Shown: positions 764 to 26,446, counted from the first letter of the stretch. The stretch is DNA of 26,669 bases from Candidatus Hermodarchaeota archaeon (GCA_016840065.1 JAEOTB010000033.1:1-26669), one strand, 5' to 3'. Numbers and translations: made by a program. The notes: generated by a model not told the origin, from the sequence alone.

Positions 764-2362
764 GTGAATGGTATAAGGCAGCTATTCGTCTTGCTTCTGA
801 TATTACCTGTCTGTATGGGGTTCATCCAGTACCCGTATCCGGTGCAGGGGGTCACCGAGGAGTTCCCCATTGGTCTTGCATTGACCTATGCGGCTACTTG
901 GGAAGATGACAGTTGGGTTGAACGATACGATGTGATGCGGTGGGCCACCGAGGTGGGTGAACACATCGTGCAAATCGACATCACCACCTACACCGGCACA
1001 ACCACCCTTCAAGATCACATACTTGTTAACACCTCAACATGGAATTATGTTAATGCAAATGGCACACCCAGTATCGACGTGGTATCACCGCCCCTGTGGC
1101 TAAATACCTCAGATTGGATTGAATATATTCCAACATACATTCCACCATCAAATCTTGAATACGGTTTACGGAAGGGGATTCCTTCTGAGATTCCCGCGGG
1201 AACATACTTCAGCTGGGTAGCATCCTATCATTGGTCAGACCTTAGTACTAACGATCCTTGGACAAGCATCACGGATCGGCTCTATTTCGAAGAAGACAGT
1301 GGAACCTTGATTAAATGGAGTTATAGCCGATTCGATTCGGACTCCTACACTACAGAAACCAAAACCCTAACACTGACATCTGGAAATCTTCGGACCTTTG
1401 GAGTGCTTTCCATCCCAGAACAAGCTTTACCAGGCGTACTCCTCGGGGTCCTAATTCTTCTCAGTATAATTATGGTCAGCTGCGCAGTGTATAGACGACC
1501 ACCGAGCCCTGGGATTGAAAGGGAGAGAACTGTTACAGACTGGATTAACCTATTGAAAAACAATCAAGGGGATCCTGACGTTCGGCAGCGTGCTGCTCAG
1601 GCGTTAGGGCAGTCTGGGGATTTCCGTGCTACTAAGCCCCTTCTTGAGGTGCTCCGAGGGGATACACATAGTCGTGTGCGTCGAGCCGTTGCTCAAGCCC
1701 TTGGAAATCTCAGAGATCCCAGAGCAGTCAAAACCCTAATCAACATTTTGCTACGCGAGGGTAATATCGATGTACAGCGGGGGGCAGCTTGGGCACTAGG
1801 TCAGATTGGAGATCGCCAAACCGTGAACCCCCTCGTCCAAGTTTTGCGAAACGCTGAGTCTGATGAGGTACGCCAGAGCGCTGTGAGGGCCTTAGGACAA
1901 CTGGGAGATTATCGAGGCGTCACCCCCCTTCTCCATGCTTTGCAACATGATGAGGCGATAGAGGTGAAATTGAGCGCCGCATTAACCCTGCAGGATCGCT
2001 GGGATAGCCTCAGCCAAACGCAACAGCAGTTTGCGACGCGACTCATCCGAGACCTACCGCTTAGAACAGTAGAGGAGGACGACGCGGAACTCCAGCAGCC
2101 AGTAGTTCCCATCCCGCAGACCCTTCAGTGCATGTCCTGTGGCGAGACGGTTAAAGCGGAGGGAACGGTTTGTACCAAGTGTGGAAACCTCCTTCACCGT
2201 TGCATGGTCTGCCAGCGGCGTATAGGTCAAGGAGAAGGGCACAGCCGGTGTCCATTTTGTGGAACACTGGCGCACCGCGATCATCTGCTGCAGTGGCTTG
2301 ATATCCGGACAGTGTGCCCTCATTGCCAGCGGACTTTGCATCCCAGAGAACTTACATCTTGA
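764..2362 (+). CDS. Single-pass membrane protein: signal peptide, ectodomain, TM, PBS-lyase/HEAT repeats, C4 zinc finger and RING variant (putative membrane E3 ligase)
   Basis: Hydrophobic N-terminus; TM VLLGVLILLSIIMVSCAVY; about five VR..AA.ALG..GD.RA..PL repeats; CMSC..CTKC, then CMVC-x12-CPFC-x4-H-x2-H-x3-W-x6-CPHC. Confidence 0.85.
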   Translation: MNGIRQLFVLLLILPVCMGFIQYPYPVQGVTEEFPIGLALTYAATWEDDSWVERYDVMRWATEVGEHIVQIDITTYTGTTTLQDHILVNTSTWNYVNANGTPSIDVVSPPLWLNTSDWIEYIPTYIPPSNLEYGLRKGIPSEIPAGTYFSWVASYHWSDLSTNDPWTSITDRLYFEEDSGTLIKWSYSRFDSDSYTTETKTLTLTSGNLRTFGVLSIPEQALPGVLLGVLILLSIIMVSCAVYRRPPSPGIERERTVTDWINLLKNNQGDPDVRQRAAQALGQSGDFRATKPLLEVLRGDTHSRVRRAVAQALGNLRDPRAVKTLINILLREGNIDVQRGAAWALGQIGDRQTVNPLVQVLRNAESDEVRQSAVRALGQLGDYRGVTPLLHALQHDEAIEVKLSAALTLQDRWDSLSQTQQQFATRLIRDLPLRTVEEDDAELQQPVVPIPQTLQCMSCGETVKAEGTVCTKCGNLLHRCMVCQRRIGQGEGHSRCPFCGTLAHRDHLLQWLDIRTVCPHCQRTLHPRELTS

Positions 2363-2458
2363 GATGATGTACCCAGTAGGGGCTATTCACTCATTAGCTG
2401 TAAATCCCTGTACATTCTTCTTGTCGGACTCTGAGCGTTCTGAGAATCCTAGAAGGGG

Positions 2459-3499
2459 TTAGAGGTCGGAGGGTCGGAGTTTTTTCCGGCATATCGGGCA
2501 CCGCCCATTCACCTTGAGCCATTCAAGCATGTGACTCCTGTGAGCAACGCCCTTACAACGAGGGCATCTTAGGTAAGACGACCTCGCCTTAATTAAATGG
2601 CGGCAGACCATACACTTTGACCCAACAACATCGTCACCGCGTTCGGCTGTAGCTGCTGAACCCGCTTCTTCGCCTTCCAGCGATGTTGATAGTTCAAGCG
2701 TTGATTCTTCTTCAGCGAGAGGTATATCACTACCCTCATGAGGGCTAGATGACCTTCGTCCCCAAACTGCATAACAGACCATAATTACACTGATGATTAT
2801 TAGGAACCCCAGGAGTACGCCTGGAAAAACTCGTTCTGGAATTGTGAGTACTCCAAAGGCACGAAGGTTGGCGGATGTAAGGGTTTTTGATTTAGTGTCT
2901 TCTGACCAGGAGCTCGAATAGTGTTGAGTGAAGCTATAGCTCCATTCAAGCAAGATTCCACTTCCTTCTTCAAAATAAAACTTCTCCCTAGTGGTTCTCC
3001 AAGTACTCGAAATCCCCAAAGTTGACCAATAATAGGAAGCTTCCCAGCTAAGAAAGCTACCAGCTTGAACCCCTGAAGGGACGCCGTTCAGTAAATGGTA
3101 GTGGCGAACTGATGTTGGAATGAATATTGGGATTCCCACAGTCCAGTTCGAAGTGTCTAGCCAAAGGGGTGGTGAGACAACCTCAGTTCTTGGTGTGCCA
3201 TCAGCATTAACACAATTCCATGTTTGGGTGTTAACCAATAACTGATCCCGGATGGCACCTGTATCCGTGGTGATAAGGTCGATTTCGAGGATGTTCTCGC
3301 CAACCTCTATGGCCCACCGTACTACTTCGTAACGCTCAGTCCAGGTTGAATCGTCCTCAGTGACCTCATAGTTCAAGACCAGACCGATGGGGAACTCGTC
3401 TGTGACTGCTCGCACAGAATAGGAATATGGGATAAAGCCAAGACAGGCATTAAACATCAGAACCAAGAGGATTAGCTTTCTAATACCCTTCACAACCAA
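2459..3499 (-). CDS. Paralogous single-pass membrane protein: same ectodomain, TM, acidic linker and RING variant (no HEAT repeats or zinc finger)
   Basis: Shares VT.EFPIGL.L.Y, ERY.V.RWA.EVGE, VVSPPLWL.TS, YFEE.SG.L..WSYS and LTSxNLR.FGVL.IPE with the 764 protein; ends CMVC-x12-CPRC-x4-HRSHMLEW-x6-CPIC. Confidence 0.85.
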   Translation of the reverse strand: MVVKGIRKLILLVLMFNACLGFIPYSYSVRAVTDEFPIGLVLNYEVTEDDSTWTERYEVVRWAIEVGENILEIDLITTDTGAIRDQLLVNTQTWNCVNADGTPRTEVVSPPLWLDTSNWTVGIPIFIPTSVRHYHLLNGVPSGVQAGSFLSWEASYYWSTLGISSTWRTTREKFYFEEGSGILLEWSYSFTQHYSSSWSEDTKSKTLTSANLRAFGVLTIPERVFPGVLLGFLIIISVIMVCYAVWGRRSSSPHEGSDIPLAEEESTLELSTSLEGEEAGSAATAERGDDVVGSKCMVCRHLIKARSSYLRCPRCKGVAHRSHMLEWLKVNGRCPICRKKLRPSDL

Positions 3500-3735
3500 C
3501 TGCGAATGATAAATACCTGAGAGATAGGAGATAATAACCTTTGGTTTTTCTGAATCGCCTGTGAGTTCACCTTCAGCAAATCAATTAAACCTCAATCTCC
3601 AAATAGGACAATGAGTTATTGCAGGAGGGAAAAGGAGAGCGAGTTATTGCCTGAGTGCTGGAGTACTGTTATACCGGAAAAAGAGGATTTAATAACGGAG
3701 GTATATAGACGAATGACCCTTGGAGGACTTCTTCA

Positions 3736-4515: not shown

Positions 4516-4557
4516 GGCTGTTGGAACGTTCTTCTCGGAAGGTGGTGTCAATACTCT

Positions 4558-4620: not shown

Positions 4621-4649
4621 ACCACGAAATCACCCAAGGAGCCAGGATA

Positions 4650-5264: not shown

Positions 5265-5301
5265 ATAACTCTCATAAATAGAAGATGAATGGAGGTGAAT
5301 A

Positions 5302-5570: not shown

Positions 5571-5846
5571 ATGAATGGGAACGAAATCATCATCGGACTT
5601 GTGAAGAACGGAGAATTCTACCAACTATCACCCAAGGCTGCCCTTGGCGAAGTGGTTCGCCTGACCCAAATCAGTAGGCAGGAGAGTAGGCCACCTGACG
5701 CTGGGCTAGTCGACTTGTCTGAGTTCGAGGGAGTTGTAATCGCAGTCCAAGGTATTCTTGATAGTGGGTGGCTTTACGAGGCGAACGTTGTGGAAAAAGG
5801 TGGAATCATATTAACGGCTTTAGCTCAAGAGGTATTTGGTGACTAG
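5571..5846 (+). CDS. Hypothetical protein (small, beta-rich, possibly OB-like)
   Basis: 91-aa ORF with protein-like composition; TATA-like GATATAAG at ~5512. Confidence 0.7.
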   Translation: MNGNEIIIGLVKNGEFYQLSPKAALGEVVRLTQISRQESRPPDAGLVDLSEFEGVVIAVQGILDSGWLYEANVVEKGGIILTALAQEVFGD

Positions 5847-5879
5847 ACACAATAAATGCGCGAATCCTCTTTGTCTTGG

Positions 5880-6914
5880 CTAAATAGGGAGATGGATGGC
5901 AAACTGGCAGGTGTCATCACCCTTGGCGAGAGATTTAACGATCTCTACTCTTACAGGTTCTCCCAAAATACCCTCCCATAGGCGTCTGACCCATCCACTA
6001 CCACAATAACAAAATGTGTGGGAAATCTTGTCTAGATTATCTCTAATCAGGGGACAGAAGCAGTTAGCTCGGCGTCGTTCAGCATCAGTCTTTGCCTTTT
6101 CAAGTTCTTCGGGATTAGCGGGTCTTTTCTGCGAGTAGAGTACGTTACCTTTACGAGTGAACCGTGGAAACCTAGTGTAGTCTGCGTGCATGGCTTCGAT
6201 GACTTTGTCTATGTCTCCTGTCTCTTCAAAGACTGCTCTTACAATCGCTATGCTGGCTTCGGGGAAGTCATGAGCGCAAGGGGAAAGGATTAGGTATTTC
6301 TGGTATTCATCTGCAATCTTGTCTAGACGATTCAACGCAGCTGCTGTCCAATCGAACCGCTCTGCGCGACTAGATTCGAAAGTGAGTGTATCAAAGCCCT
6401 CCAGGACCTTTGCTCGATCCTCAACTCCAAGGACCTGTTCTAGCCCAGCCAAAAAGCGTTTATGCCAGTTCTGAAGAACGACTTGGACTTCGGTGACGTT
6501 TTCCTCTGGGTTCTCAGGATTGATTTCCAGGAAGACCTCTCTGCCCGTCAATGCGCCCATGATTCCGTGTTCTCTCATGAACCCGTAGATCTTCTGGTAG
6601 GTTTCAGATATTGTGTCTTGAGACCCGTGGTGGTGTAGGGTTAGGGCTTCAACTGCTTCGAGGGTTCGACTTGTTATCTCACCTGTTTTTACTGTCCGTT
6701 TGATTGGGATACAGGCTTCGGCGTCGAATCCTTTGTCTACTGTGTCAGCGTGAAAGACGAGGATGGGAGGTCCACTCGTGTTTTCCTTACAGGCTTTACC
6801 TAGTTTGTCAAATGCCGGTACAAGTTCGGCTCTTTTCTGGACAATCAATCTGGTGCTCGCGACTAGCTGAGGTTTAATCTCTTTTGGGGTTATTCCCAGT
6901 TCCTTCAAAGACAT
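5880..6914 (-). CDS. GyrI-like small-molecule-binding domain fused to a Cys-rich (DUF6144/V4R-like) domain
   Basis: N-terminal GPP..FH, EACIPI, HHGS..TI..TY..I..F, REVFL (GyrI-like); C-terminal CAH, CFCP, FCYCGSGW, SLAKGDDTCQF. Confidence 0.75.
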   Translation of the reverse strand: MSLKELGITPKEIKPQLVASTRLIVQKRAELVPAFDKLGKACKENTSGPPILVFHADTVDKGFDAEACIPIKRTVKTGEITSRTLEAVEALTLHHHGSQDTISETYQKIYGFMREHGIMGALTGREVFLEINPENPEENVTEVQVVLQNWHKRFLAGLEQVLGVEDRAKVLEGFDTLTFESSRAERFDWTAAALNRLDKIADEYQKYLILSPCAHDFPEASIAIVRAVFEETGDIDKVIEAMHADYTRFPRFTRKGNVLYSQKRPANPEELEKAKTDAERRRANCFCPLIRDNLDKISHTFCYCGSGWVRRLWEGILGEPVRVEIVKSLAKGDDTCQFAIHLPI

Positions 6915-8486: not shown

Positions 8487-8558
8487 CTGTAGCTAAGCTC
8501 CATTGAGTATTTTGCACCCTCACTAATCTCACGTTTTTTCCAAGGCACCTTGCACCAA

Positions 8559-8708: not shown

Positions 8709-10895
8709 ATGAATCTACGTACGAGAAGGATAACACAATTAGTACTCGCCCTAATCGTCTTAGGAGCGGGTGTACCACTGTCGGGGAGGAGTCTTCCACC
8801 CAATCAAGGATCTACCACGAAACCAGTATTCTCCCTGACCACATTCGAAGGTAGAGAGTTTTCACTACAAGCCCTCCCCCGAATGGAAGAGTCTAGGGTA
8901 GGTGTGAGAGCCCCTACCGGCTCCGCCAACGTTTCAATAACAAGTGACGCAGATTTCTCAGCGCAAGGCTTTCCTGGTTCAGGCACGCCCAGCGACCCTT
9001 ACCGGATTGCAAATCTGACAATTGACGTGAACCGTACGTTGTACAGCTACGGTATCATGGTGTACAACACTACGGCGTATTTCCGCATCGAGAATTGTAC
9101 TATACGCAACGCCACGCAAGCAACATTTAGCGCTGGAATTCTTATCTACGAGGTTAACTATGCCCAAGTCGTAAACAACACCGTGACAAACTGTTCAAAT
9201 GGAATTTACCTCTACGACTCCCAGTTTTCAGACATTTTCGAAAATATTTGCACCTACAATGATCTTCCGCATGAGAGTGCTGGCATCCGCCTGACCTATG
9301 CCTACAATACTACAGTTGCAAGGAACAACTGTACATCCAATTACCACGGAATCAAGTTATTCGCTGCGCATAACTCCACACTAACAAACAATCTTTGTAC
9401 ACTTAACGGTGCAGGAATCGAACTCAGTACGACACATCATTACTTAGTCGCCAGTAACAATTGTACCAGTAACGGCGTTGGTATCAGTACTGAACACTCC
9501 GAGTATGGTATTGTGAGGAATAACAATTGCAGCGGTAATGCGGGGACTGGGATAGATTTGTACTCTGTCGGATACTCGGGAGATGAAACGATTGCGCGGT
9601 TTGAAGATAACCTCTGTAATGATAATGGCTACACAGGTTTTTGGATCTACGATTCGAATGGTATTATTCTGTCCAATAACACGTGTAATACTAACGGCCA
9701 CGACTCCATTCATGATGGGGCAGGGATTTATTCATACGCCTCATCATATTTAACATTCGTTAACAACACGTGTAACTACAACGAGTACGGCATCCTCCCA
9801 AGTTGGTCTAGTATCATTACTCATAACTTAGTAGCGCATAACACGATGTACGGTCTTCTTGTGAGTAGTACGAATTCGCTCATATTATTCAATATCTTCG
9901 AGAATAATACCTTGAACGTCTTTGAACCGTGGTATAGGACGCGCTTGAACACCTTTGATTATAACTACTACTCTGACTATGCTGGATTTGACGCTGACCG
10001 TGATGGAGTTGGAGACACACCGTATTTAATCCCGAGTTCCTCCGAACACCTAGTATTTGTCTGGGATTATCATCCACTAGCACAACCTTTCAGGAGTGAG
10101 GCTCTTGAAGTCGTGGTCAGTTCCCATAATATCCGCGAGGCTATAGTGTTCTTTTTATTCCCTGTTGTTTTCACTCTCCTTGTCGCTGCCCTCACAGCCT
10201 TCTACATGAAACGAAGAATGATCTCAGAGAAGGAGTCCAGTATCTTCTTCAAATTCGGATACCTCGGATTCGTCCTACTCTTAGCCTCGCTTCTCCTCAA
10301 TAGAGTCTTCTTCGTGGATCTGTTCAACTTTCACCCAGTTAAGGCTGTACTCCTGGGCTTTTCTCTAGCAACCTACTCGCTCTGTAGCTTGGTCTTTCTG
10401 GGTTTGGTCACCGCGTACAGGTCAAAGCTAGGAGTTGTGGCGTTTATCACGACGATGGTCGCAGTCTTTTCTGTGGTGATTACAGGTCCGTTCGTTATCG
10501 TCCCGTACATACCTGGTGGGCTAGTGTTTGTGGGGATTGGGCTGCTGTTGTGTTATGTTATGCTGGTTTCTTGGAGTTTCCCAGTAATCCGGCATAGAGC
10601 GAGAATCGGACACCGACACACCTCACTGATTGTGCTGGTGGGGCTGTTCTTCCTTCTCGGCGGGCTTCTCCAAATAGATCCAGTTGGCTTTGCATATAAG
10701 ATTAGTAGGCTTCAAAGACTTCTGCCATGGTATCCTGAATTCTTCTTTGAAGATTGGTTCTGGTATCTCTGGGCACCATATGTTTGGATACCCTTCAATC
10801 CCCTCGCCACCATCTTCCTATCCATAGCATCTTTACTTGTCTTTGCTGTGTGGGTAGCGAAATTAGTTAAATCAAAGCGAGGATATGACAAATAA
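8709..10895 (+). CDS. Right-handed parallel beta-helix (NosD/CASH-like) ectodomain protein with a C-terminal multi-pass membrane domain
   Basis: Signal peptide; GFPGSGT.SDPY.I; many NN.C..N..GI repeats; NYYSDY.G.D.D.DGVGDTPY; about 7 C-terminal TM segments; SD GAGGAGG. Confidence 0.85.
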   Translation: MNLRTRRITQLVLALIVLGAGVPLSGRSLPPNQGSTTKPVFSLTTFEGREFSLQALPRMEESRVGVRAPTGSANVSITSDADFSAQGFPGSGTPSDPYRIANLTIDVNRTLYSYGIMVYNTTAYFRIENCTIRNATQATFSAGILIYEVNYAQVVNNTVTNCSNGIYLYDSQFSDIFENICTYNDLPHESAGIRLTYAYNTTVARNNCTSNYHGIKLFAAHNSTLTNNLCTLNGAGIELSTTHHYLVASNNCTSNGVGISTEHSEYGIVRNNNCSGNAGTGIDLYSVGYSGDETIARFEDNLCNDNGYTGFWIYDSNGIILSNNTCNTNGHDSIHDGAGIYSYASSYLTFVNNTCNYNEYGILPSWSSIITHNLVAHNTMYGLLVSSTNSLILFNIFENNTLNVFEPWYRTRLNTFDYNYYSDYAGFDADRDGVGDTPYLIPSSSEHLVFVWDYHPLAQPFRSEALEVVVSSHNIREAIVFFLFPVVFTLLVAALTAFYMKRRMISEKESSIFFKFGYLGFVLLLASLLLNRVFFVDLFNFHPVKAVLLGFSLATYSLCSLVFLGLVTAYRSKLGVVAFITTMVAVFSVVITGPFVIVPYIPGGLVFVGIGLLLCYVMLVSWSFPVIRHRARIGHRHTSLIVLVGLFFLLGGLLQIDPVGFAYKISRLQRLLPWYPEFFFEDWFWYLWAPYVWIPFNPLATIFLSIASLLVFAVWVAKLVKSKRGYDK

Positions 10896-15815: not shown

Positions 15816-15861
15816 AATGCTGCTCACCTAGTCAAGGTTGCATCAAGGAGGCTTTCAGGTA

Positions 15862-17109: not shown

Positions 17110-17112
17110 GAT

Positions 17113-17598
17113 ATGGAGGAGGAATCACAATCAGAGTATGATGATGAGAAATACACTATCACGATACGGGATGAAACATTAGCTAGGATTGCTCTTGTAA
17201 TCTTCGGTGTTCTGGTGCTGCCCTTAGTTTGGTTAGGTTACATTCTCATAACGCTCAACCTAGTCTGGGTTCTCATAGTCGGGAGTTTCCTAGCCTTCTG
17301 GTTCCTGGTCTATGCGGTGTTGGACTACTATGTACGCTCCCGGACAACAAGCAAAGCCAAGCGATTCATGGTCAGGTTCCTCCCAGCTTTACCGTTGACA
17401 CTAAGTCCGATAATAACATATTTTTTCGCTAGACGTGGATGGCCCTGGCAAGAGATGTGGATACCGGGTGTTACTAGTTCGATTTTCGTGTTTCTGATGA
17501 TTATTGAATCGGTGCTGCTCTGTGGTCTTCTACTGGCTGCAAGGCTTGAGAGAAGGTATCCCCCGCTCGAACCAGAAAAAGGAGGTAAGTCATCTTGA
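17113..17598 (+). CDS. 4-TM membrane protein, array paralog 1
   Basis: 4 TMs; IES.LL and C-terminal RLERRYP motif. Confidence 0.8.
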   Translation: MEEESQSEYDDEKYTITIRDETLARIALVIFGVLVLPLVWLGYILITLNLVWVLIVGSFLAFWFLVYAVLDYYVRSRTTSKAKRFMVRFLPALPLTLSPIITYFFARRGWPWQEMWIPGVTSSIFVFLMIIESVLLCGLLLAARLERRYPPLEPEKGGKSS

Positions 17599-18035
17599 AA
17601 CGTCACTGGCAACTCCTCATACTTCTTGTTAGCATAGTGCTGGCAGCTTTAATCGTTTTTTATGCTGTACCCCTCGTGGTAGCAGGGGAATTATTCACAC
17701 TCGTTTTCTGGTCTGCCTTCGCCCTCTACTCCGTTGCCATAATAGCGTTGGTGACTTATATGCGCCACCGTACCGCGGAGCAACGCTGGATATCCCTCGT
17801 CTACTGCGCCTTGGTGTTACCAATCCTTCTCTTCTCTTGGGGTTATTTCCCGTTTTCGAGCACCCGTCCAGAGACAGGGTGGTGTGTCTTGTTCGTGCTT
17901 CTGGAGTCATGGCTCTTGTTCTTTGGGTTCGTGTATCCGTGGCTGAAACGACGATTCCCCGAAAAAAGGAGGATAGGAAGGTTTCCCGAGAAGGTTCCCG
18001 AGTTAAAACCAGCTACAGGAGATGAACTTTCATGA
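17595..18035 (+). CDS. 4-TM membrane protein, array paralog 2
   Basis: MKR start; Y.R.R after TM2; LES.LL; PWLKRRFPEK. Confidence 0.8.
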   Translation: MKRHWQLLILLVSIVLAALIVFYAVPLVVAGELFTLVFWSAFALYSVAIIALVTYMRHRTAEQRWISLVYCALVLPILLFSWGYFPFSSTRPETGWCVLFVLLESWLLFFGFVYPWLKRRFPEKRRIGRFPEKVPELKPATGDELS

Positions 18036-18457
18036 AACATACAACGCGGCTCGCTATATTCCTTGTAATCGGTATTCCATTGACAGCGCTGCTTATGTGG
18101 ACCGCTATCCCTGTTATCCTTGGAGGCTCGGTTCAGGGCATAATTGTTGCACTATATTGGGCAATCTATACAACCGCTTTCTTCCTGTTTTTCACTTACA
18201 TTAGATACCGTGACCCGCGATGTGGTTGGTACATTCTTGCCACCATACTCTTTGTCATCCCTTTCGCCACTGCACAAACTCTCTTCAACGTTTTCTTCGA
18301 TCTCAGCTTGATTGAAATCCACTTCTACTTGGTAACCATAATTGAAGCGCTTCTCATCCTATGGTTCGTTGAGCCAAGGTTAAAGGATAGGTTCCCAGAG
18401 AGGAAGAGTCCCCAAGCGATTCTCATCGAACATGGTCATGGAGGTGATTATTCTTGA
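18032..18457 (+). CDS. 4-TM membrane protein, array paralog 3
   Basis: MKH start; GGSVQ; YIRYRDP; IEALL; PRLKDRFPER. Confidence 0.8.
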   Translation: MKHTTRLAIFLVIGIPLTALLMWTAIPVILGGSVQGIIVALYWAIYTTAFFLFFTYIRYRDPRCGWYILATILFVIPFATAQTLFNVFFDLSLIEIHFYLVTIIEALLILWFVEPRLKDRFPERKSPQAILIEHGHGGDYS

Positions 18458-18873
18458 AGCGTTCAACTAGACTTATAGTGTTCGTTGTTGTGGGGGTCTT
18501 GTTGGCTGTACTGCTCGTGTTGACCGTAGTCCCTTCATGGATTGGAGGTTCAGTTCAGGTTTTTCCCTTTGCCCTTTTTGTGGTGTTGTACGTGACTGTC
18601 TTCTCCCTCTTGTTAGTCTACATTAACCATCGAGACCCGGGCAGCTGGCGTGCATATTTTGCCCTATCAGCCATCTCGGTGCCCTTCGTCGTAGCTGCTT
18701 TCATCCTGTTCGATTTCAACTGGTTCACCCTGAACGATTCCATCTATTTCTTCATAGTAGCTCTGGTGACTTACATTCTCCTCTGGCTCATTCAGCCAGT
18801 CCTGGAGAAGAGGTTCCCGAAGAAGAGTGAAAAAGAGATTGTATTCAGCCGCCGAGGAGATGATTCATCGTGA
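18454..18873 (+). CDS. 4-TM membrane protein, array paralog 4
   Basis: MKR start; GGSVQ; YINHRDP; PVLEKRFPKK. Confidence 0.8.
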   Translation: MKRSTRLIVFVVVGVLLAVLLVLTVVPSWIGGSVQVFPFALFVVLYVTVFSLLLVYINHRDPGSWRAYFALSAISVPFVVAAFILFDFNWFTLNDSIYFFIVALVTYILLWLIQPVLEKRFPKKSEKEIVFSRRGDDSS

Positions 18874-20777
18874 AGCGTTTACCCTTCTCTCTGTTACTTG
18901 TGACCAGCACAGTCATTGTGGCTTTGGTGTTTGTTCACCCTCCGAATCAGCTCTTTTCAGTGAATACTGCAAGAGCTGTTACTCCTGACCAGTGGGTTCA
19001 AGACTATGGGAGTAATGATAATCAAGAACAAGCAGCAGGTGTGGTGGAGTGTGGCAATGGTGACTTCTTGATAGCTGGGACGACACACTATTCCGGGCCT
19101 TGGGATGAAGAAATCATCTTGATGCGTGTCGACTCCTACGGAAACCAGCTCTGGAACCGAACCTACAACAGTGAGCAAAGGTCCAGGGCAGAAGCCCTTA
19201 TACAAACGGGGGAGAACCAGTACTTGATTGTGGGTGCAACCTACAATGCAACAGAATGCGATGTTCAAGTCCTGCAAGTTAACGAGCTTGGAGTAATAGT
19301 CTGGAACGTGTCCATCGGCGGACCCCTTAATGAGTATCCCCTTGATGCCGTACCTTGTTCTGATGGGGGAGCAGTCATCGTGGGTTCAACATATCCTGAT
19401 CATATAGAAGATAGGGACCTCTTTGCCTATCGGATTAGCAGCACCGGCTCCTTGGAGTGGAACTTGACTTATGATGGCGGTGGTTTCGAAAGTGCCTATG
19501 ATGTCTATCAATGCAGTGATGGGTCATTTCTTCTCGCAGGATATTACCGGGGTTTTGATTTGGGTTCCCTGAAAATGGGACTCGTCATGTCGCTCAACTC
19601 GACGGGGGACATTGAATGGGTGGAGCATTATTCCCGTAGCACTGATTTCACACCACTCTCCATAGCAGAAACTCCAACAGGAGGTTTCATCATCGGTGGA
19701 TACGTCATGGGTGATTTTGCGGATCAGAATTCGTACTTTGGCATTTACGATAGCAGCAGGGAAGAGGTGTATAGCCAGACCTACATCATACCTCAATACA
19801 ATCGTATCACAGATATTGTACCCTGCTCTGATGGTTTCCTCCTGGTAGGAGTGCACTCCAAGTATTATGGGGCACTCGTTGTAAGACGAATTATTTTCTC
19901 AGGGGGACTAATCTGGGATTGGGCTATCGGAGTCAGATTCAGGGACTATGGTGGTCGAATTTTCCGAGCCATATCCTGCAACTCTGGAGGATTCTTTCTA
20001 GCTGGCCGGGCTAATGTTCAAATCTCACCGGTACCATACAGTATAAGCTCAAGCCAAGTCTTTGCTGTTCGAATCTTAGAGTTTCCTCTATCACCGGACT
20101 TCCATTACAAGACAACGCTTCTTGGATACTCCATGGTCTTTGCTGTTTTATTCGTTATTAGCCTCTACCTCCTCTTTCGGCGACCCTCCTGGATTCGCAC
20201 AAGATGGTCCTTGAGAAAAGATATGCCAGCCATATTACTGGTTTTTCAATTGCTTATCTACCCCTCTTTCATGGTGTTTTTTTTGGTATTCCAGATCTTC
20301 AGTTTACGCCAGATGTATGGGCAGATCAGTACCTCTCAAGAAGCTCCTCTTTCCCTTTTAAACCCGGTTAGCTTTCCTCTTGTGCTTGTGGCTGTTCTAG
20401 CATCTGTTGTTATTGAGGTTTTCTTTTTCCGTTATATCTCTGGGCTGAACTTACCAAGTAATTGGGTGCCTCCAAGGAAGGTAGCCATTCTATTCCCTCT
20501 GATACTCCTGATATCCCCGATAGTCAGGTTGCTTGACTGGTTTTTCTTCCCTTGGCTTGACCTTCTCCTATTCCCCCTCTTAGTGGGTTTTGCCTTGGTG
20601 AGCCTCTTCCCCCTTTACCTTCTTACCCGACGCTGGGAGGTGACCCACCAGCGAAAACTCGTAAATCAGGGAAAGACTGTTGTAACTGTACCGATAGATA
20701 CAATGGAGGCAACATTGGAGCCAGTGAATGGAGATGATTCCTCAGGAACGCAGCCCGCAACCAAGGCTGAAGATTAA
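18870..20777 (+). CDS. Extracellular beta-propeller-type repeat domain with a C-terminal multi-pass membrane domain
   Basis: N-terminal hydrophobic segment; about 7 ~50-aa repeats (C.DGGF..AG.T....D......D..G...WN.TY); about 5 C-terminal TMs. Confidence 0.8.
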   Translation: MKRLPFSLLLVTSTVIVALVFVHPPNQLFSVNTARAVTPDQWVQDYGSNDNQEQAAGVVECGNGDFLIAGTTHYSGPWDEEIILMRVDSYGNQLWNRTYNSEQRSRAEALIQTGENQYLIVGATYNATECDVQVLQVNELGVIVWNVSIGGPLNEYPLDAVPCSDGGAVIVGSTYPDHIEDRDLFAYRISSTGSLEWNLTYDGGGFESAYDVYQCSDGSFLLAGYYRGFDLGSLKMGLVMSLNSTGDIEWVEHYSRSTDFTPLSIAETPTGGFIIGGYVMGDFADQNSYFGIYDSSREEVYSQTYIIPQYNRITDIVPCSDGFLLVGVHSKYYGALVVRRIIFSGGLIWDWAIGVRFRDYGGRIFRAISCNSGGFFLAGRANVQISPVPYSISSSQVFAVRILEFPLSPDFHYKTTLLGYSMVFAVLFVISLYLLFRRPSWIRTRWSLRKDMPAILLVFQLLIYPSFMVFFLVFQIFSLRQMYGQISTSQEAPLSLLNPVSFPLVLVAVLASVVIEVFFFRYISGLNLPSNWVPPRKVAILFPLILLISPIVRLLDWFFFPWLDLLLFPLLVGFALVSLFPLYLLTRRWEVTHQRKLVNQGKTVVTVPIDTMEATLEPVNGDDSSGTQPATKAED

Positions 20778-20793
20778 TGAAGCAGAAAAATAG

Positions 20794-21072
20794 TTGGTAG
20801 CCACTTTGATTTACCTCTTCTTGTCTTTTATGGGTGCCCTGTTTTTCTGGGGATTCCTTATCGGTGTGTTCCTTGGAATCATGGGGCTCTGCTGCCTGAT
20901 TAAGAGCTTGACTGGATCCTCTAAGGCCAGTCGACCAGCAGCTACGATTCCACGCTATACAAGAGAGCTTTCTATGCGACCACCGTTGAACCAATGCCCT
21001 CGGTGCGGGGCAGAGCACGGAGAGGATGATCTCTTCTGCGATGCCTGCGGTACTCAATTGAGAGAAGATTAG
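20794..21072 (+). CDS. Small membrane protein with a C-terminal zinc ribbon
   Basis: Hydrophobic N-terminus; CPRCG......FCDACG. Confidence 0.75.
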   Translation: MVATLIYLFLSFMGALFFWGFLIGVFLGIMGLCCLIKSLTGSSKASRPAATIPRYTRELSMRPPLNQCPRCGAEHGEDDLFCDACGTQLRED

Positions 21073-21098
21073 GTCAAGGAGAACTGGAGGGGATAGTA

Positions 21099-21491
21099 TT
21101 GGAACGATATGAAATTGGGACTAGCATATTATGGGGAATGATGGTTGGTTATGGTTTGATTGTCTTTACGCCTATTGTGCTACAAACGGGCGGAACCTTC
21201 ACCGTCTTCCTTTCCTTGTTTTCAGTAATTTATCTCCTCGTTGTTTTCTGTTTGCATTTCTTTGTTTATCGTCGAACAAGAAATCACTGGTGGACGCTCC
21301 TCACTTTCGTGCTGTGTATTCCCATATTCTTTGTATTATTCTTTGTGAATGCTTTTGGCGTGGGGCATATGGGCTTCTATATGTCTTCCGTTAATTTGTC
21401 CCTCATTATTTGGTTACCAATCCGTGAGTGGTTGACGAAGCGATTTCCGGATAAACTCACCCAGTTCGAGGAGGAATTACGCAGGAAATAG
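21099..21491 (+). CDS. 4-TM membrane protein, divergent array paralog 5
   Basis: SD GGAGGGG; VYRRTRNHWW after TM2; EWLTKRFPDK. Confidence 0.75.
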   Translation: MERYEIGTSILWGMMVGYGLIVFTPIVLQTGGTFTVFLSLFSVIYLLVVFCLHFFVYRRTRNHWWTLLTFVLCIPIFFVLFFVNAFGVGHMGFYMSSVNLSLIIWLPIREWLTKRFPDKLTQFEEELRRK

Positions 21492-21635: not shown

Positions 21636-21854
21636 ATGCACTTTCAGCTCAAGAGGTTCTTCTACCGGAGGTACCATGAGGATTCAGATAGTGCCCGTAT
21701 CAGAAATGCGTTGCAGGCCTATCTTGACGCGAAGAGGGCTTTCAGGTTACTCTACGGCCGTGACCCCGATATGGGTACTGACGATGTTGACATTATTGGT
21801 GAACTCTATCTTTTGGGATTGATGTCAAAGCGCTACGGAGCCAAGAACGACTAG
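21636..21854 (+). CDS. Small hypothetical helical protein
   Basis: TTTATATT at ~21573; AGGAAGG before the ATG; 72 aa. Confidence 0.55.
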   Translation: MHFQLKRFFYRRYHEDSDSARIRNALQAYLDAKRAFRLLYGRDPDMGTDDVDIIGELYLLGLMSKRYGAKND

Positions 21855-21952
21855 TGAAGAACAGAGTCGAGTCCTTCGCTTCAAGCTTCTAAAATATCAA
21901 GTTTCCCAAAACCTTTAGTTTCGGGGAGATATTGATGAGCTTGTGACCAATA

Positions 21953-22135
21953 ATGCCATTGAATAAAGCGGTGCTAGGTTTGACCTTAGGGACGATCCTT
22001 GGGGGGCTGCTGGGTGTTTTCCTCTGGATTAGCTATGGAGAGATACTTTACTGGCTCATTTTCATGTTCATAGGGTGCAGCATTGGCCTAATCCTTGGTT
22101 ATGGGCAACATGAAGCCGAAACCTCAAGGGAATAG
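21953..22135 (+). CDS. Small Gly-rich 2-TM membrane protein
   Basis: Two GxxxG-rich hydrophobic helices. Confidence 0.7.
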   Translation: MPLNKAVLGLTLGTILGGLLGVFLWISYGEILYWLIFMFIGCSIGLILGYGQHEAETSRE

Positions 22136-22166
22136 GGAAAATTCCTTCCAGACATCATCTAAATCG

Positions 22167-22181
22167 GAACCTTGGGGTTCG
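22167..22181. repeat. Palindrome GAACC-N4-GGTTC(G), copy 1
   Basis: GAACCTTGGGGTTCG; 14/15 identical to 22901-22915. Confidence 0.5.
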
Positions 22182-22434
22182 GTAACTGACTGTTTTCCTC
22201 CCTTCTTTCTCCTTTTTCCCAACCTGTCCTCTCCCACGGAAATAAATCAGTCCAAGCCCTACTTCTCCTTGAGCAACGATGTCTGATAGCAATATGATCT
22301 TCCGATACATAGCCTATGACGAGGCCCTAGGGTCTATTCCCACAGTTCTAAGGCGGAACCTCAAACGAGTGCAAGGCATGAGGTTCTGGTTGAGTAGAGT
22401 ATAATTCATTAGACCAGTAAGGAGGTGATACAAA

Positions 22435-22659
22435 ATGGAGAAATTCGCTAAAACGAAAATCGTGAAGCCCAAACCTTTCCTGTTCACCAAGCCTGTGCTG
22501 CATCAGCGTATCCCTCGCCTTCAGACTCTTCCACCGGAAGTTCAGATAAAGGCAATCCTACGTCCCAGAGTAGCTGATCAGGTGGTTGGCCGAAACGCCA
22601 CCCAGGATCGCAAGAACGCATTCACCTGGGCCCTGTTCACCCACCGAACAGCAAGATAG
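22435..22659 (+). CDS. Small basic hypothetical protein (74 aa)
   Basis: Perfect SD AGGAGGTGA about 6 nt before the ATG. Confidence 0.65.
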   Translation: MEKFAKTKIVKPKPFLFTKPVLHQRIPRLQTLPPEVQIKAILRPRVADQVVGRNATQDRKNAFTWALFTHRTAR

Positions 22660-22900
22660 AATATTCTACCTGCCTATTCTAGGAGGGTCAGCGAGGAAGA
22701 CAACCAACCTTGACATGAGCAGGCACCTTGGTGGTAGTACACTCACAACGGACCTCTAGGGAGTGCTGAAGAGCTCCCAGTCGTTCCTTACAAATGGTCG
22801 CGCAGAAACAAGCCCTTAATCCTCCTCTGGTTCCTTCAGCCTTCCCGTGAGGTCCGTTCTCACCTTCTTTTTCATTGATCCCCTTTTCCCACCGTTTTCT

Positions 22901-22915
22901 GAACCGTGGGGTTCG
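22901..22915. repeat. Palindrome GAACC-N4-GGTTC(G), copy 2
   Basis: GAACCGTGGGGTTCG. Confidence 0.5.
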
Positions 22916-23199
22916 CTTCTGCCCATTTTCAGCCCATTTGGGGCTTATTTCCTCACCAGGCTTCTACCGTGTACTAATATCAGACGGTGGGCACATGACA
23001 TTGTAGAGGTGTTTGAAGTGCAAATCTGTAAACACGCTTACATCCGGCTACCAAAAATAACCTTGAAGACCCCCGTAAAGGTGTCCAAGCCAGAAGGGAG
23101 AGCAGGCGGGAAATCTGTAGCTTCAGATAACGAATAGTCATAGCCCAAGTAGAGGTGGCCCACAGAGGGTGGTGGGACACCTCCCCTTCAAATCGTGAG

Positions 23200-23217
23200 T
23201 CCTCAGGCTTAAATAGT
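23200..23217 (+). promoter_or_regulatory. BRE/TATA promoter shared by two RING genes, copy 1
   Basis: TCCTCAGGCTTAAATAGT, identical to 25833-25850. Confidence 0.7.
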
Positions 23218-23255
23218 TCTTCCACGTAGTTCCCCTTAGACGTTGGGCTTCTAGC

Positions 23256-25307
23256 ATGGGAGCAGTTATGGTATTCAATCAGCGTAGAAGCAAGCAAGTG
23301 CAAGGAGTCATTATTCTCCAGCTGGTTATTATTTTACTTGGAGTTACCCCAGTCACGGTACTATCCTTTGACCACATTGTATCCGACAACTTGTTCAAGA
23401 GGAGCATGGCTCAAGCCAGTACTCCAAATCTAACACGTTTTGTTCAGTCGGGTTCGCTGGAGTTCCGAGACATAAACACTGATGACCCAGACCTGATATG
23501 GAGCCAAGTTCTTGGTGGAGCAGAGAGTGAAATATGCTGGAGTCTTGTAGAATGCTCCAGCGGTGGATTCGTCACAGTCGGGAAAACCGAAAGCTATGGT
23601 GCTGGCGGACAAGATGTGTGGCTCATCCGCTTTGACAGTCATGGCAGCTACATGTGGGACACCACCTTTGGTGGAGTAGGGGAAGACATCGGCAGGGACA
23701 TAGTAGAATGTGCAGGAGGAGGGTTCATCATCGTTGGGCATACGACCAGCTTTAGCACAGGTTCTGGTGACGAGTATGACTTGTGGTTAATTCGTATCGA
23801 TGCCAGTGGGAATCTTTTATGGAATCGGACGTTTGGTGGTGAAGAGGAGGAAAAAGGATGGGCCGTCGTTGAGTGTTCTGGAGGCGGGTTCGCCGTTGCT
23901 GGGCATACTGATAGTGGCTTAACAGGGAGCCGAGATGGGTACCTGGTTCGCGTCGATGCGGATGGAAACCTTCTGTTCAACCAAAGCTATGGAGGATATG
24001 ATGAGGACGTTTTTCGAGATCTTATTGAAGTCAGTGGTGGGTTTGTCCTTGCTGGCTATACAACCATTGATTCGGCTACTGATGGGTGGTGGATGCGTAC
24101 AGATGATTTAGGGAGTGGAATAGCCGCTTCAACCCTCCACTACGCCGGCGTTGCTCAATACATCTATTCTGTGATTCAACCCAGCGGAGGCGGATACATC
24201 GTAGCAGGCATGAATATTTTTTCGAAGTTAAGAGATGATGGAACTCTCGAATGGAGGAAAATCCCGCCTGGTTCAGTCGGGGGTGACACTTCGGTTGTGG
24301 AATGTACCAAAGGCGGTTTTGCCCTCTGTGGCTACTCCTCCGGAAAGGGGGCGATAATTCGCACAGATGCAAATGGCAATTATCTTTGGGGAGAGACCTA
24401 TGATGCGTCTGGTGGGGCAGGAACCAGCGCCCTTTATGGTCTTATAGAGTCCAGTGATGGGAATTTCACGTGTACGGGATACGCTGACTTAAGAAGTAAC
24501 CATGATGTTTGGTTGGCGAAGGCCCCTGATGTTGACATCTGGTGGGACGAAGAGCCGAGAGACCAAATCGTTTATTGGTTGGATAGTTTCAGATACGACT
24601 TGGATGCGTCTGCCTGGGGGGGCATCAGCACCTGGTGGCTCGATGATACAGAGAACTTCATTATCGACGATGACGGAGTTATCACCAACACGACTGCTGT
24701 AGCTGAAGAAGTCTGGCATTGGTTGGAAGTCACCGTCAATGACACGAACGGCAATACTCTGGTTGGCAGCTTCAACGTGATTTTTCTCAGCTTTCCTCCA
24801 CCAGACGAATATTGGCCCAATCCCGTTGACATATTGATACCTGTAGCCCTATTTCTTCTGATACTTCTGATTATCGGAGTCTTAGTGATGAAGGCTAGAA
24901 CCGATAACGAACCAGAACCACTCGCTAGGGAAAGACGAAGAAGGCGAGTAACCAGAAGAGTAACAACTCCAGATCCGGCGGAAATCCAAACCTATCCCAT
25001 ACCAGGTATGCCAGTTGCTGAGGAGCCGGAAGACCCGAGTATTGAGGGGCGCTTGGCAACTCCTAGCCGATTCCGCTGCATGGAATGCGGCGAGTTTATC
25101 ACGGGTGGCAAAGATGTGTGCCCAGAGTGTGGGGCAAAGCAGGTGAGGTGCATGGTGTGTCAACAATTCATCGGGCAAGAAGAACTCTATATTATGTGCC
25201 CGCATTGTGAGCAGCTCGCCCACCGTGCTCATCTGCTGGAGTGGGTCAAAATCAAGGGTATTTGCCCCTACTGTAAAGAGAAACTTCGACGGTCGGATAT
25301 AGGTTAG
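23256..25307 (+). CDS. Single-pass membrane protein: beta-propeller-type repeats, Ig/cadherin-like domain, TM, C4 zinc finger and RING variant
   Basis: Signal peptide; about 7 VEC.GGGF..G.T...DVWLIR.D..G...W repeats; WWLDDT..F.ID..G.ITN...LEVTVNDT.GN; TM; CMEC..CPEC-x6-CMVC-x12-CPHC-x4-H-x2-H-x3-W-x6-CPYC. Confidence 0.88.
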   Translation: MGAVMVFNQRRSKQVQGVIILQLVIILLGVTPVTVLSFDHIVSDNLFKRSMAQASTPNLTRFVQSGSLEFRDINTDDPDLIWSQVLGGAESEICWSLVECSSGGFVTVGKTESYGAGGQDVWLIRFDSHGSYMWDTTFGGVGEDIGRDIVECAGGGFIIVGHTTSFSTGSGDEYDLWLIRIDASGNLLWNRTFGGEEEEKGWAVVECSGGGFAVAGHTDSGLTGSRDGYLVRVDADGNLLFNQSYGGYDEDVFRDLIEVSGGFVLAGYTTIDSATDGWWMRTDDLGSGIAASTLHYAGVAQYIYSVIQPSGGGYIVAGMNIFSKLRDDGTLEWRKIPPGSVGGDTSVVECTKGGFALCGYSSGKGAIIRTDANGNYLWGETYDASGGAGTSALYGLIESSDGNFTCTGYADLRSNHDVWLAKAPDVDIWWDEEPRDQIVYWLDSFRYDLDASAWGGISTWWLDDTENFIIDDDGVITNTTAVAEEVWHWLEVTVNDTNGNTLVGSFNVIFLSFPPPDEYWPNPVDILIPVALFLLILLIIGVLVMKARTDNEPEPLARERRRRRVTRRVTTPDPAEIQTYPIPGMPVAEEPEDPSIEGRLATPSRFRCMECGEFITGGKDVCPECGAKQVRCMVCQQFIGQEELYIMCPHCEQLAHRAHLLEWVKIKGICPYCKEKLRRSDIG

Positions 25308-25319
25308 AGGTGTCGTGAA

Positions 25320-25754
25320 TTGCAGCAACCAGACAACTTTTTGGCAGCTATCATCATTGGAGCTTGGGTAGCTATCATTATTGGATTAGGCATCTATTTT
25401 GGGTGGAAGAGAAGAAGGGAAGATGCGGAGCTGCTTGACGCAGAGGTATCATATACGCGAGTAGAAGAAGAGTGGGACCAATGGAGTTCCACCGAACGAC
25501 AAGCGAGACCAAGCCGGTTCCGGTGCTTCAAGTGCGGAGAGTACATCACAGGGGGCGAGGCGGTCTGCCCCAAGTGTAAGGCGAAGCAACAGCGTTGTAT
25601 GGTCTGTAAGCAGTTCATCGGTCAAGAGGAACTCTACAACAGCTGCCCCCACTGTAAACAGCTCGCCCATCGGAACCATCTGCTGGAGTGGCTCAAGGTC
25701 AAGGGCACTTGCCCTTATTGTAAGAGAAATCTACAACCGTCGGATGTTGTATAG
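25320..25754 (+). CDS. N-terminal TM, C4 zinc finger and RING variant (no ectodomain)
   Basis: SD GAGGTG; one TM followed by KRRR; same ZnF-RING as 23256. Confidence 0.85.
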   Translation: MQQPDNFLAAIIIGAWVAIIIGLGIYFGWKRRREDAELLDAEVSYTRVEEEWDQWSSTERQARPSRFRCFKCGEYITGGEAVCPKCKAKQQRCMVCKQFIGQEELYNSCPHCKQLAHRNHLLEWLKVKGTCPYCKRNLQPSDVV

Positions 25755-25832
25755 GTTTTCCAGTGCATCTGGTCGGCGGGAAATCAGTTGCCTCCGAAGA
25801 CAAATAGACTGTCAAGGTGAAGCTCCGACGAC

Positions 25833-25850
25833 TCCTCAGGCTTAAATAGT
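25833..25850 (+). promoter_or_regulatory. BRE/TATA promoter shared by two RING genes, copy 2
   Basis: Identical 18-mer, at the same distance from the homologous start codon as copy 1. Confidence 0.7.
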
Positions 25851-25888
25851 ACTTTTAATCCAGTTTCTTAAAGCGCTTGGGGTTCAAT

Positions 25889-26446
25889 GTGGGAGCTGTC
25901 TTGGTAAACCATCAAAACACCAACAGACTGAGGGAATTTGTCACTCTCCTTGTTTTCGTTCTAATTCTTTTAGTTGTGGGCTTGGTTATGTCTCACCCCA
26001 GCATGCTCCAAGTGTTAGACCAACTTGGGTTGCCACCGAGAATAACACTAGTTATGGTTATCTGTGTTGTCCTTATCATTTTGTGTGGTTTTCTAGCCTC
26101 GAGAAGATGGAGGGGTGAAGAGCAAGATATGAGAGAAGGAGCGGTATCAGATTCTGAGGATGATTGGGGTAGTGAAAGCATCTTTGAGAGAGAGACAAGA
26201 CCTAGTCAGTTCAGGTGTCTGGAGTGCGGAGAGTTCATTACTTATGGGAAGGCTGTTTGCTCAAAATGCGGTGAGAAGCAGAAGCGGTGCATAGTTTGCC
26301 AGCAGTTTATTGGGCAGGAGGAACTCTACAGTAAATGTCCCCACTGCAAACAGCTAGCACACAGAGTCCACCTACTTGAATGGGTTAAGGTCAAGGGCTC
26401 ATGCCCTTACTGCAAGGAGAAACTGCGTAAGGAAGAGCTGGTTTAA
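25889..26446 (+). CDS. 2-TM protein with C4 zinc finger and RING variant (start probably GTG 25889 or TTG 25901 rather than 25877)
   Basis: VGAVLVNHQ aligns with MGAVMVFNQ of 23256; same ZnF-RING. Confidence 0.85.
   Translation: MGAVLVNHQNTNRLREFVTLLVFVLILLVVGLVMSHPSMLQVLDQLGLPPRITLVMVICVVLIILCGFLASRRWRGEEQDMREGAVSDSEDDWGSESIFERETRPSQFRCLECGEFITYGKAVCSKCGEKQKRCIVCQQFIGQEELYSKCPHCKQLAHRVHLLEWVKVKGSCPYCKEKLRKEELV

Follow-up and report, generated by a model that had tools for sequence, protein, structure and literature searches.

We analyzed a 26,669-nucleotide stretch of DNA from Candidatus Hermodarchaeota archaeon (GCA_016840065.1, JAEOTB010000033.1; hereafter 'the window'), which corresponds to the complete contig C5 of a 2.59-Mb assembly of 84% completeness. 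Five of its genes, numbered 1 to 5 in order of position (Table 1), encode proteins that end in a shared cysteine- and histidine-rich tail, and both sequence comparison and structure prediction indicate that these proteins are probably membrane-anchored, RING-type ubiquitin E3 ligases of this Asgard archaeon. Because the tails represent the same type of RING as the ligase found in the ubiquitin operon of this genome, membrane-bound and receptor-shaped ubiquitin ligases, which are a hallmark of eukaryotes, probably already existed, and had diversified, in archaea. An earlier note on this DNA had described the five genes as a single system spanning positions 764–26446. They are instead located in two small clusters, one at either end of the contig, with unrelated genes between them, and the single-system description was therefore rejected. 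All five of the open reading frames (ORFs) named in that note exist; its start for gene 5 (25889) is an internal GTG of an ORF that begins at position 25877.

Translation and alignment of the five ORFs demonstrated that each ends, as had been described, in the sequence C-x2-C-x12-C-x2-C-x4-H-x2-H-x3-W-x6-C-P-x-C, followed in genes 1 to 5 by Q, R, K, K and K. The C-termini can be aligned without gaps and share 17 invariant columns, including the eight zinc ligands, the tryptophan and the proline of the CPxC element. A C-x2-C-x10-C-x2-C zinc ribbon is positioned directly upstream of the RING in four of the five genes (gene 2 lacks it). The motif is not a product of chance, since a strict regular expression finds it in 21 ORFs of this genome and a hidden Markov model (HMM) in at least 31 ORFs (33 domains); the five genes of the earlier description are thus an undercount.

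Using an alignment of 25 paralogous tails of this genome (alignment A2), the tail of gene 4 (window positions 25575–25751) was modeled with AlphaFold2. The resulting model (predicted local distance difference test score, pLDDT, 91.8) contains one helix and two short hairpins, and the best 50 matches to it in the PDB, as identified by Foldseek, were all RING or U-box domains. These included TRIM37 (TM-score 0.82, root-mean-square deviation 1.6 Å, 58 of 59 residues), Rad18, RNF24, RNF38, RNF165, EL5, RNF12, RNF13 and TRAF6; overall, solved RING and U-box structures were matched with TM-scores of up to 0.83 and deviations of 1.1–2.3 Å over 48–58 of the 59 residues. In a recheck with VIA-align the best 50 matches were again all RING or U-box domains (Z 6.8–9.2), and the tail is accordingly predicted to adopt the cross-brace fold of that class. 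No PHD entry was present among the best 50 matches of either comparison, an absence that does not by itself exclude that fold. A sequence profile of the tail had its best matches among eukaryotic RING-H2 E3s, with Arkadia (2e-8), EL5 (6e-8) and RNF24 (8e-8), and also matched RNF165, RNF126, RNF4, RLIM, ZNRF3, RNF13, Hrd1 (3e-5) and gp78 (1e-4). Matches of the window proteins to Pfam family zf-RING_2 (PF13639) extend over the full length of that model (positions 2–44 of 44), and three paralogues elsewhere in the genome exceed its cut-off of 27.3 bits (the operon RING at 27.9, and proteins of contigs C73 and C106 at 29.2 and 28.8 bits). Only partial matches were observed to Prok-RING_1 (PF14446; model positions 3–33 of 54, 13–22 bits versus a cut-off of 29.1).

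The RING consensus is C-x2-C-x9-39-C-x1-3-H-x2-3-C/H-x2-C-x4-48-C-x2-C, and the PHD finger is a C4HC3 domain with a cysteine at ligand 6 and a tryptophan two residues before ligand 7. The tails (C-x2-C-x12-C-x2-C-x4-H-x2-H-x10-C-x2-C) contain eight ligands in an arrangement that departs from the canonical RING consensus. In HMMER alignments to Arkadia, EL5 and RNF24 the canonical third cysteine corresponds to the second cysteine of the middle CxxC, while the canonical fourth ligand (histidine) is unmatched and is replaced by the first cysteine of that CxxC knuckle; the two histidines of the tail are ligands 5 and 6. Ligand 6 is therefore a histidine, and the tryptophan lies six residues before ligand 7, at the position that it occupies in RING-H2 domains, so that the PHD signature is not present. 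On the basis of that histidine and the position of the tryptophan we assign the tail to a C4H2C2 variant of the RING, rather than to the PHD family. The ligand pattern, the tryptophan position and the fold matches together led us to reject both a PHD and a two-ribbon identity, which the earlier note had named as outcomes that would contradict its reading.

The residues by which RING ligases contact E2 enzymes are also conserved, in agreement with the hallmarks listed in that note. Across the 33 domains of this genome a valine, isoleucine or leucine precedes the second cysteine in 32, the helical tryptophan is found in 27 (with phenylalanine or tyrosine in five more), a proline follows ligand 7 in all 33, and lysine or arginine follows the last cysteine in 22. 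The valine before the second cysteine, the tryptophan and the proline are each present in all five window tails. A predicted complex of the operon E2 with the RING tail (score 0.25, mark 0.32), computed with no controls, was not used as evidence.

Judged by its gene content, the genome encodes a complete ubiquitin cascade. Contig C69 carries, in a row, genes for E1 (ThiF, 6e-64), E2 (UQ_con, 5e-34), ubiquitin (8e-12) and an 81-residue RING protein, with genes for UEV-Vps23, Vps28 and EAP30 (ESCRT-II) arranged divergently from this cluster, so that the ubiquitin, E1 and E2 genes expected by the earlier note are found together with ESCRT-I and ESCRT-II genes. The ubiquitin ends in GG, the E2 contains the HPN motif and the catalytic cysteine, and JAB peptidases are encoded in the genome. 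The operon RING (C69, 44483–44758) displays a ligand spacing identical to that of the window tails, scores 77 bits against the family HMM and shares 37% identity with the gene 4 tail; by these measures the operon RING and the window tails are one RING family. The corresponding operon RING of Caldiarchaeum subterraneum (srfp) is an active E3 in vitro, and requires I30, W58 and R69 (PMC5654768). The operon RING of Helarchaeia is likewise active in vitro, and that operon ubiquitylates UEV-Vps23 (bioRxiv 10.1101/2023.07.25.550441). The positions matching srfp I30, W58 and R69 are conserved in the 33 RING domains described above.

Two further genes were noted beside the ubiquitin operon (locus L004): a membrane protein that combines a Yip1 domain with a zinc ribbon at its N-terminus (5792–6550, plus strand), and a 174-residue protein with no Pfam match (8839–9363, minus strand) that is probably the conserved uncharacterized neighbor reported in bioRxiv 10.1101/2023.07.25.550441.

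Each of the five tails is located downstream of an uncharged run of 19–24 residues that is immediately followed by a cluster of basic residues (RRPPSP, RRSSSP, KAR...RERRRRR, KRRR and RRWR past the last transmembrane segment of genes 1 to 5, respectively), as the earlier note had observed. Genes 1–3 also encode an N-terminal hydrophobic segment; all ten N-x-S/T sequons fall inside the predicted ectodomains; and homologues of the gene 3 propeller in other proteins are fused to PKD domains, type IX secretion system sorting tails, PGF-CTERM anchors and cadherin domains. Based on the N-terminal segments, the basic clusters, the sequon distribution and the surface-anchor fusions of the propeller homologues, we predict that the RING is cytoplasmic and that the large domains are outside, which is the orientation that had been proposed. 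The presence of a zinc domain rich in cysteine and histidine would also fit the cytoplasm.

Approximately 20 of the 31 family ORFs in this genome contain predicted transmembrane helices N-terminal of the RING, and further paralogues outside the window include soluble HEAT-zinc ribbon-RING, leucine-rich repeat-RING and DUF2341-transmembrane-RING proteins. The same RING type was found in 110 of 151 Asgard genomes sampled, and a canonical E2 in 108 of the same 151. Tallied by family, the counts of the two agree throughout, save for two incomplete genomes in which the RING alone is present; whole Asgard families lack both (0 of 26 and 0 of 5 genomes), and in another family one of seven genomes contains both. 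These co-occurrence counts include related genomes, which are not independent observations. The genome analyzed here gave the highest number of matches of all 151 (34–35, a count somewhat favored by a family model built from its own paralogues), followed by 12–29 in a few other lineages, 9–19 in congeners and 3–7 in the sister genus. In three genomes of other Asgard families, a transmembrane segment precedes the RING in 16 of 26 sampled RING ORFs, including proteins of 600–830 residues with a signal-ectodomain-transmembrane-RING layout. A search of 1.84 billion cluster representatives returned 774 matches at E <= 1e-10. Among the best 141 that bear the motif, the RING lies within 25 residues of the C-terminus in 132, follows a transmembrane segment in 87 and forms part of a receptor-like layout in 24. 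Among named relatives, a metagenome-assembled genome of Candidatus Hermodarchaeota is the nearest; on one of its contigs a two-transmembrane-RING gene adjoins a propeller-transmembrane-RING gene. Judged by these profile searches, the RING family is Asgard-wide. Matches of a single tail to non-Asgard proteins (from Thermoplasmatota, ANME-1, Methanosarcinales, Syntrophoarchaeum and bacteria) are plain double zinc ribbons that lack the HxxH-W-CPxC part, and are for that reason uninformative on RINGs outside Asgard archaea.

Elsewhere in the genome, contig C30 contains three adjacent RING genes (21780–24130, minus strand), two of which encode two RING domains each; some of these RINGs display a 'TPCC' variant at ligands 3 and 4.

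The proteins encoded by genes 1 and 2 share a signal peptide, ectodomain and transmembrane segment (49% identity over 293 residues). This ectodomain is a near-orphan, with three matches among 5.8 billion proteins, and a search by sequence features (0.87, below the 0.9 threshold and therefore a lead only) assigned it to no family. Its structure, predicted from 12 family sequences, is an open beta-barrel of 11 strands (pLDDT 89). The nearest solved structure is the DUF3108/YmcC-like lipoprotein 4fvs (Z 10.5), with further neighbors that include LmcA, MucB/RseB, the ApoB/vitellogenin barrel and LolA/LolB, while the nearest predicted structures are archaeal hypothetical proteins and DUF3108-like clusters (TM-scores 0.60–0.68). 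These resemblances suggest, with modest support from the model, that the barrel may bind a hydrophobic or amphipathic ligand of the cell envelope. The gene 3 propeller has more than 1000 homologues, in surface proteins, and is paralogous (E 1e-23) to the corresponding part of a RING-less, multi-transmembrane protein in the same window (18870–20777). In a second feature search the membrane-proximal part of gene 3 matched He_PIG/Big_9 at 0.83, which is again below 0.9 and a lead only. Of the modules listed in the earlier note, the shared ectodomain, the propeller and the HEAT repeats were recovered (with the HEAT repeats placed in the cytoplasm), and the Ig-like domain of gene 3 is left as a weak lead.

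Several comparisons bear on the proposal, also made in that note, that these modules are interchangeable. The cytoplasmic HEAT-zinc ribbon-RING part of gene 1 is collinear (34% identity, E 7e-42) with the soluble HEAT-RING protein encoded on contig C116. Because the front of gene 1 matches gene 2 and its cytoplasmic part matches the C116 protein, gene 1 appears to be a fusion of a gene 2-type front with a C116-type back. Genes 3–5 form a duplicated array with a common 246-nucleotide tail repeat (68–73% identity); gene 4 begins 12 bp past the end of gene 3, genes 3 and 5 have upstream elements in common, and the N-terminus and upstream DNA of gene 5 resemble those of gene 3. Between congeners the tail is 78% identical, versus 41% for the whole protein. 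Two congeners, as well as contig C131 of this genome, combine the gene 1/2 ectodomain with a transmembrane-RING tail; elsewhere among the relatives this ectodomain is followed by a transmembrane segment and either a short basic tail or a zinc ribbon, with no RING. As read from these alignments, module swapping between paralogues is real.

In one congener (locus L091; G003, contig C252) an ORF at 1318–2262 encodes a gene 1/2-type ectodomain and a transmembrane segment, followed by a lone double zinc ribbon in place of the ribbon and RING, an arrangement that suggests stepwise gain or loss of tail modules.

The window proteins resemble several previously described ligases in part of their organization. 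The archaeal srfp RING is a member of the same family, and its Ile/Val, Trp and Arg/Lys positions are kept in the window proteins; however, srfp is soluble, approximately 80–100 residues in length and encoded within the ubiquitin operon, whereas the window proteins are membrane-anchored, 144–683 residues in length and encoded far from that operon, with additional ectodomains, HEAT repeats or a zinc ribbon. RNF24 and the plant ATL/EL5 proteins have, like the proteins described here, one or two N-terminal transmembrane segments, a linker and a C-terminal RING with the tryptophan and CPxC. Those RINGs are C3H2C3 and eukaryotic, in contrast to the C4H2C2 tails, extra zinc ribbon and archaeal host described here, and the GLD motif of plant ATL proteins is not found in genes 4 and 5, despite their layout of transmembrane segment and C-terminal RING. 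The protease-associated (PA)-TM-RING proteins (RNF13, GRAIL/RNF128) and RNF43/ZNRF3 display the order of signal peptide, ectodomain, single transmembrane segment and cytoplasmic RING that we predict for genes 1–3, and the RINGs of RNF13 and ZNRF3 are significant profile or fold matches of the tail. No PA domain was found by Pfam in the window RING proteins, and their ectodomains (an open LolA/DUF3108-like barrel, and a propeller with a possible Ig-like domain) are unrelated to it. As nothing indicates that the architecture as a whole was inherited from a common ancestor, the receptor-like layout likely arose by convergence, through domain fusion. Hrd1/synoviolin and gp78/AMFR, which are membrane-embedded RING-H2 ligases that act on membrane proteins and which both match the tail profile, differ in that they are multi-pass proteins with roles in retrotranslocation, as compared to the one or two transmembrane segments of the window proteins.

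RING E3s are counted among the eukaryotic signature proteins of Asgard archaea, and biochemical assays have been carried out on the operon RING. We found no description in the literature of membrane-anchored or receptor-like RING proteins, or of their expansion, in Asgard archaea; a 2026 preprint places RING-type E3s among Asgard-eukaryote solenoid clusters.

Several observations weigh against the assignment of the five genes as membrane-anchored E3 ligases. The five window proteins score only 18.0–23.9 bits against zf-RING_2, below its cut-off, and their ligand pattern is off the RING-H2 consensus, with a cysteine of a CxxC knuckle as the fourth ligand and four residues before the fifth. Gene 1 has a glutamine at the linchpin position. 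Non-catalytic scaffold RINGs (those of WDR19 and of WDR24/WDR59) are among the structural neighbors of the tail. Topology was predicted by scanning hydropathy and applying the positive-inside rule rather than with a trained predictor, and biochemistry so far concerns soluble operon RINGs, with the membrane-anchored members predicted from sequence and model. Finally, no ubiquitin, E1 or E2 gene is located within the window, as the earlier note had itself pointed out.

The interpretation given in the earlier note is thus supported in part. For membrane-anchored ligases of this type, E2 binding, catalysis, substrates and any outside-to-inside signaling are inferred, in a scheme with the following steps. 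The N-terminal part (a barrel or propeller ectodomain, or one to two transmembrane segments) would lie outside or in the membrane, with the RING in the cytoplasm. The RING would recruit the single canonical E2 of this genome, charged with ubiquitin, to the inner face of the membrane, and would promote transfer of ubiquitin to lysines, either its own or those of neighboring membrane proteins. The ectodomain, the transmembrane segments or the cytoplasmic HEAT repeats would select the location or the substrate, and UEV-Vps23/ESCRT or the proteasome would in turn recognize the ubiquitin mark. An extension of this scheme, which takes up the surface-sensor proposal of the earlier note and which we put forward tentatively and with considerable doubt, is that these are receptor-type transmembrane E3s of Asgard archaea in which diversifying ectodomains (lipid- or glycan-binding barrels, and propellers) sense something at the cell surface, switch the RING and thereby mark membrane proteins for UEV-Vps23/ESCRT. 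If true, they would represent a prokaryotic forerunner of ubiquitin-dependent receptor down-regulation, in which one E2 serves dozens of modular E3s.

It is possible, if somewhat doubtful, that the proteins are active E3s but not sensors, and that, like Hrd1, gp78 or MARCH, they are constitutively engaged in turnover or quality control at the membrane; they would ubiquitylate themselves and neighboring surface proteins, which ESCRT or Cdc48 with the proteasome would then remove, and the ectodomain, an adhesin or envelope protein, would be the cargo rather than a ligand-gated input. The finding that sister genomes carry the gene 1/2 ectodomain in plain type I surface proteins with a short basic tail, or with a ribbon only, is in keeping with this explanation, as are the RING-less propellers of the window and of the more than 1000 surface proteins, the lack of an ectodomain in two of the five genes and the presence of Hrd1 and gp78 among the profile matches. 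The present evidence nevertheless fits constitutive and ligand-gated action alike, and the fast divergence of the ectodomain relative to the conserved tail also fits a role in recognition.

We consider it unlikely that the tail is instead a non-catalytic zinc finger that mediates oligomerization or scaffolding under the membrane and does not engage an E2, as modeled by the C-terminal RINGs of GATOR2/SEA and IFT-A or by the inactive partners in RING heterodimers. The subunits of those complexes carry a C-terminal zinc finger-RING after a propeller and an alpha-solenoid, and RINGs of WDR19, WDR24, WDR59 and the SEA complex are found among the structural or profile matches of the tail (IFT-A WDR19, 7.5e-5, TM-score 0.81–0.83; GATOR2 WDR24, 1e-4; WDR59, 6e-4). 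In addition, gene 1 lacks the basic linchpin, and if all were ligases, upward of 30 RING proteins would depend on a single E2. Those three matches are, however, three to four orders of magnitude weaker in E-value than those to catalytic RING-H2 E3s, which are the best matches also when the zinc ribbon is included; WDR19, WDR24 and WDR59 are not listed at all with such a profile, and a GATOR2/MIOS-type identity is accordingly not favored. The residues that contact E2 are conserved, no genome has the family without an E2 (apart from the two incomplete genomes described above), and the operon member of the same family is of the type demonstrated to be active. It is this residue conservation and dependence on E2 that make a scaffolding role less likely.

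That the genes constitute a fast-evolving repertoire for recognition of viruses, symbionts or neighboring cells, in which the RING removes an engaged receptor or triggers a defense, seems very unlikely to us: the variation in copy number between this genome, its genus and the sister genus, the tandem and inverted duplicates with swapped modules, and an ectodomain that is far more divergent than the tail and nearly without relatives would all fit, but no defense genes or mobile elements were seen beside the RING genes of the window, and birth-and-death turnover is typical of ordinary surface proteins too.

The specificity of eukaryotic ubiquitin systems owes much to hundreds of modular E3s, a large number of which reside in membranes, and the classical cargo of ESCRT consists of membrane proteins that bear ubiquitin. 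In archaea, to our knowledge, only the small, soluble operon RING has been studied so far. The 2.6-Mb Asgard genome described here encodes more than 30 domain-shuffled RING proteins, two thirds of which are predicted to be membrane-anchored, and a single E2. If the assignment as membrane-anchored E3 ligases is correct, the 'one E2, many modular E3s' organization would predate eukaryogenesis, as would the connection of membrane proteins with ubiquitin and ESCRT. The cytoplasmic tails of 60–90 residues, combined with E1, E2 and ubiquitin from this genome, provide short constructs with which this could be tested.

Table 1. Predicted features of the five RING genes (window coordinates; aa, amino acid residues)
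Feature	Position	Strand	Basis
Gene 1, 532 aa: signal peptide, open beta-barrel ectodomain, transmembrane helix, cytoplasmic HEAT repeats, zinc ribbon, RING	764..2362	+	
Gene 1 transmembrane helix, aa 221-243, followed by RRPPSP	1424..1492	+	hydropathy scan
Gene 1 cytoplasmic HEAT repeats, aa about 260-409	1541..1990	+	HEAT_2, E 1.3e-32
Gene 1 zinc ribbon (aa 456-473) and RING (aa 480-521)	2129..2326	+	
Gene 2, 346 aa: signal peptide, gene 1-type ectodomain, transmembrane helix, acidic linker, RING, no zinc ribbon	2459..3499	-	
Gene 2 ectodomain, aa 25-215, modeled as an 11-strand open beta-barrel	2855..3427	-	pLDDT 89
Gene 2 RING, aa 296-337	2489..2614	-	zf-RING_2, 23.9 bits; family HMM, 82.9 bits
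Gene 3, 683 aa: signal peptide or anchor, beta-propeller, possible Ig-like domain, transmembrane helix, basic/Pro-rich linker, zinc ribbon, RING	23256..25307	+	
Gene 3 surface beta-propeller repeats, aa about 80-415	23493..24500	+	homologues; paralogue at 18870-20777
Gene 3 transmembrane helix, aa 526-545	24831..24890	+	hydropathy scan
Gene 3 zinc ribbon and RING, aa 608-673	25077..25274	+	
Gene 4, 144 aa: 6-residue N-terminus, transmembrane helix (aa 7-29), KRRR, acidic linker, zinc ribbon, RING	25320..25754	+	
Gene 4 RING, aa 93-134, domain used for folding	25596..25721	+	
Gene 5, 189 aa: two transmembrane helices (aa 21-39 and 56-75), RRWR, acidic linker, zinc ribbon, RING	25877..26446	+	

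The genes that surround or separate the two clusters are largely ordinary. They encode a NikR-type regulator (197–646, plus strand), two class I methyltransferases, one nitroreductase, one GNAT protein, a 728-residue NosD-like protein with a right-handed beta-helix (8709–10895, plus strand), a DUF169 protein (12550–13362, plus strand) and an operon of orphan membrane proteins. Two tandem paralogues on the minus strand (13479–14399 and 14591–15508) encode type I surface proteins, each of which comprises a signal peptide, a sequon-rich ectodomain, a C-terminal transmembrane segment and a short basic tail (RSKRGK and RSRKGK, respectively), with no RING and no Pfam match.

The orphan membrane proteins are encoded in a tightly packed operon (15838–21491, plus strand) that matches no Pfam families and that holds several small paralogues with four transmembrane segments (17113–18873 and 21099–21491). 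The propeller protein at 18870–20777 (plus strand), which is 635 residues in length, has a signal peptide, the gene 3-like propeller and a C-terminal half with multiple transmembrane segments. It is followed by a protein of 92 residues (20794–21072, plus strand) with a single transmembrane segment at the N-terminus and, at the C-terminus, a CxxC...CxxC zinc ribbon without a RING, which may represent a minimal relative of the transmembrane-zinc ribbon layout.

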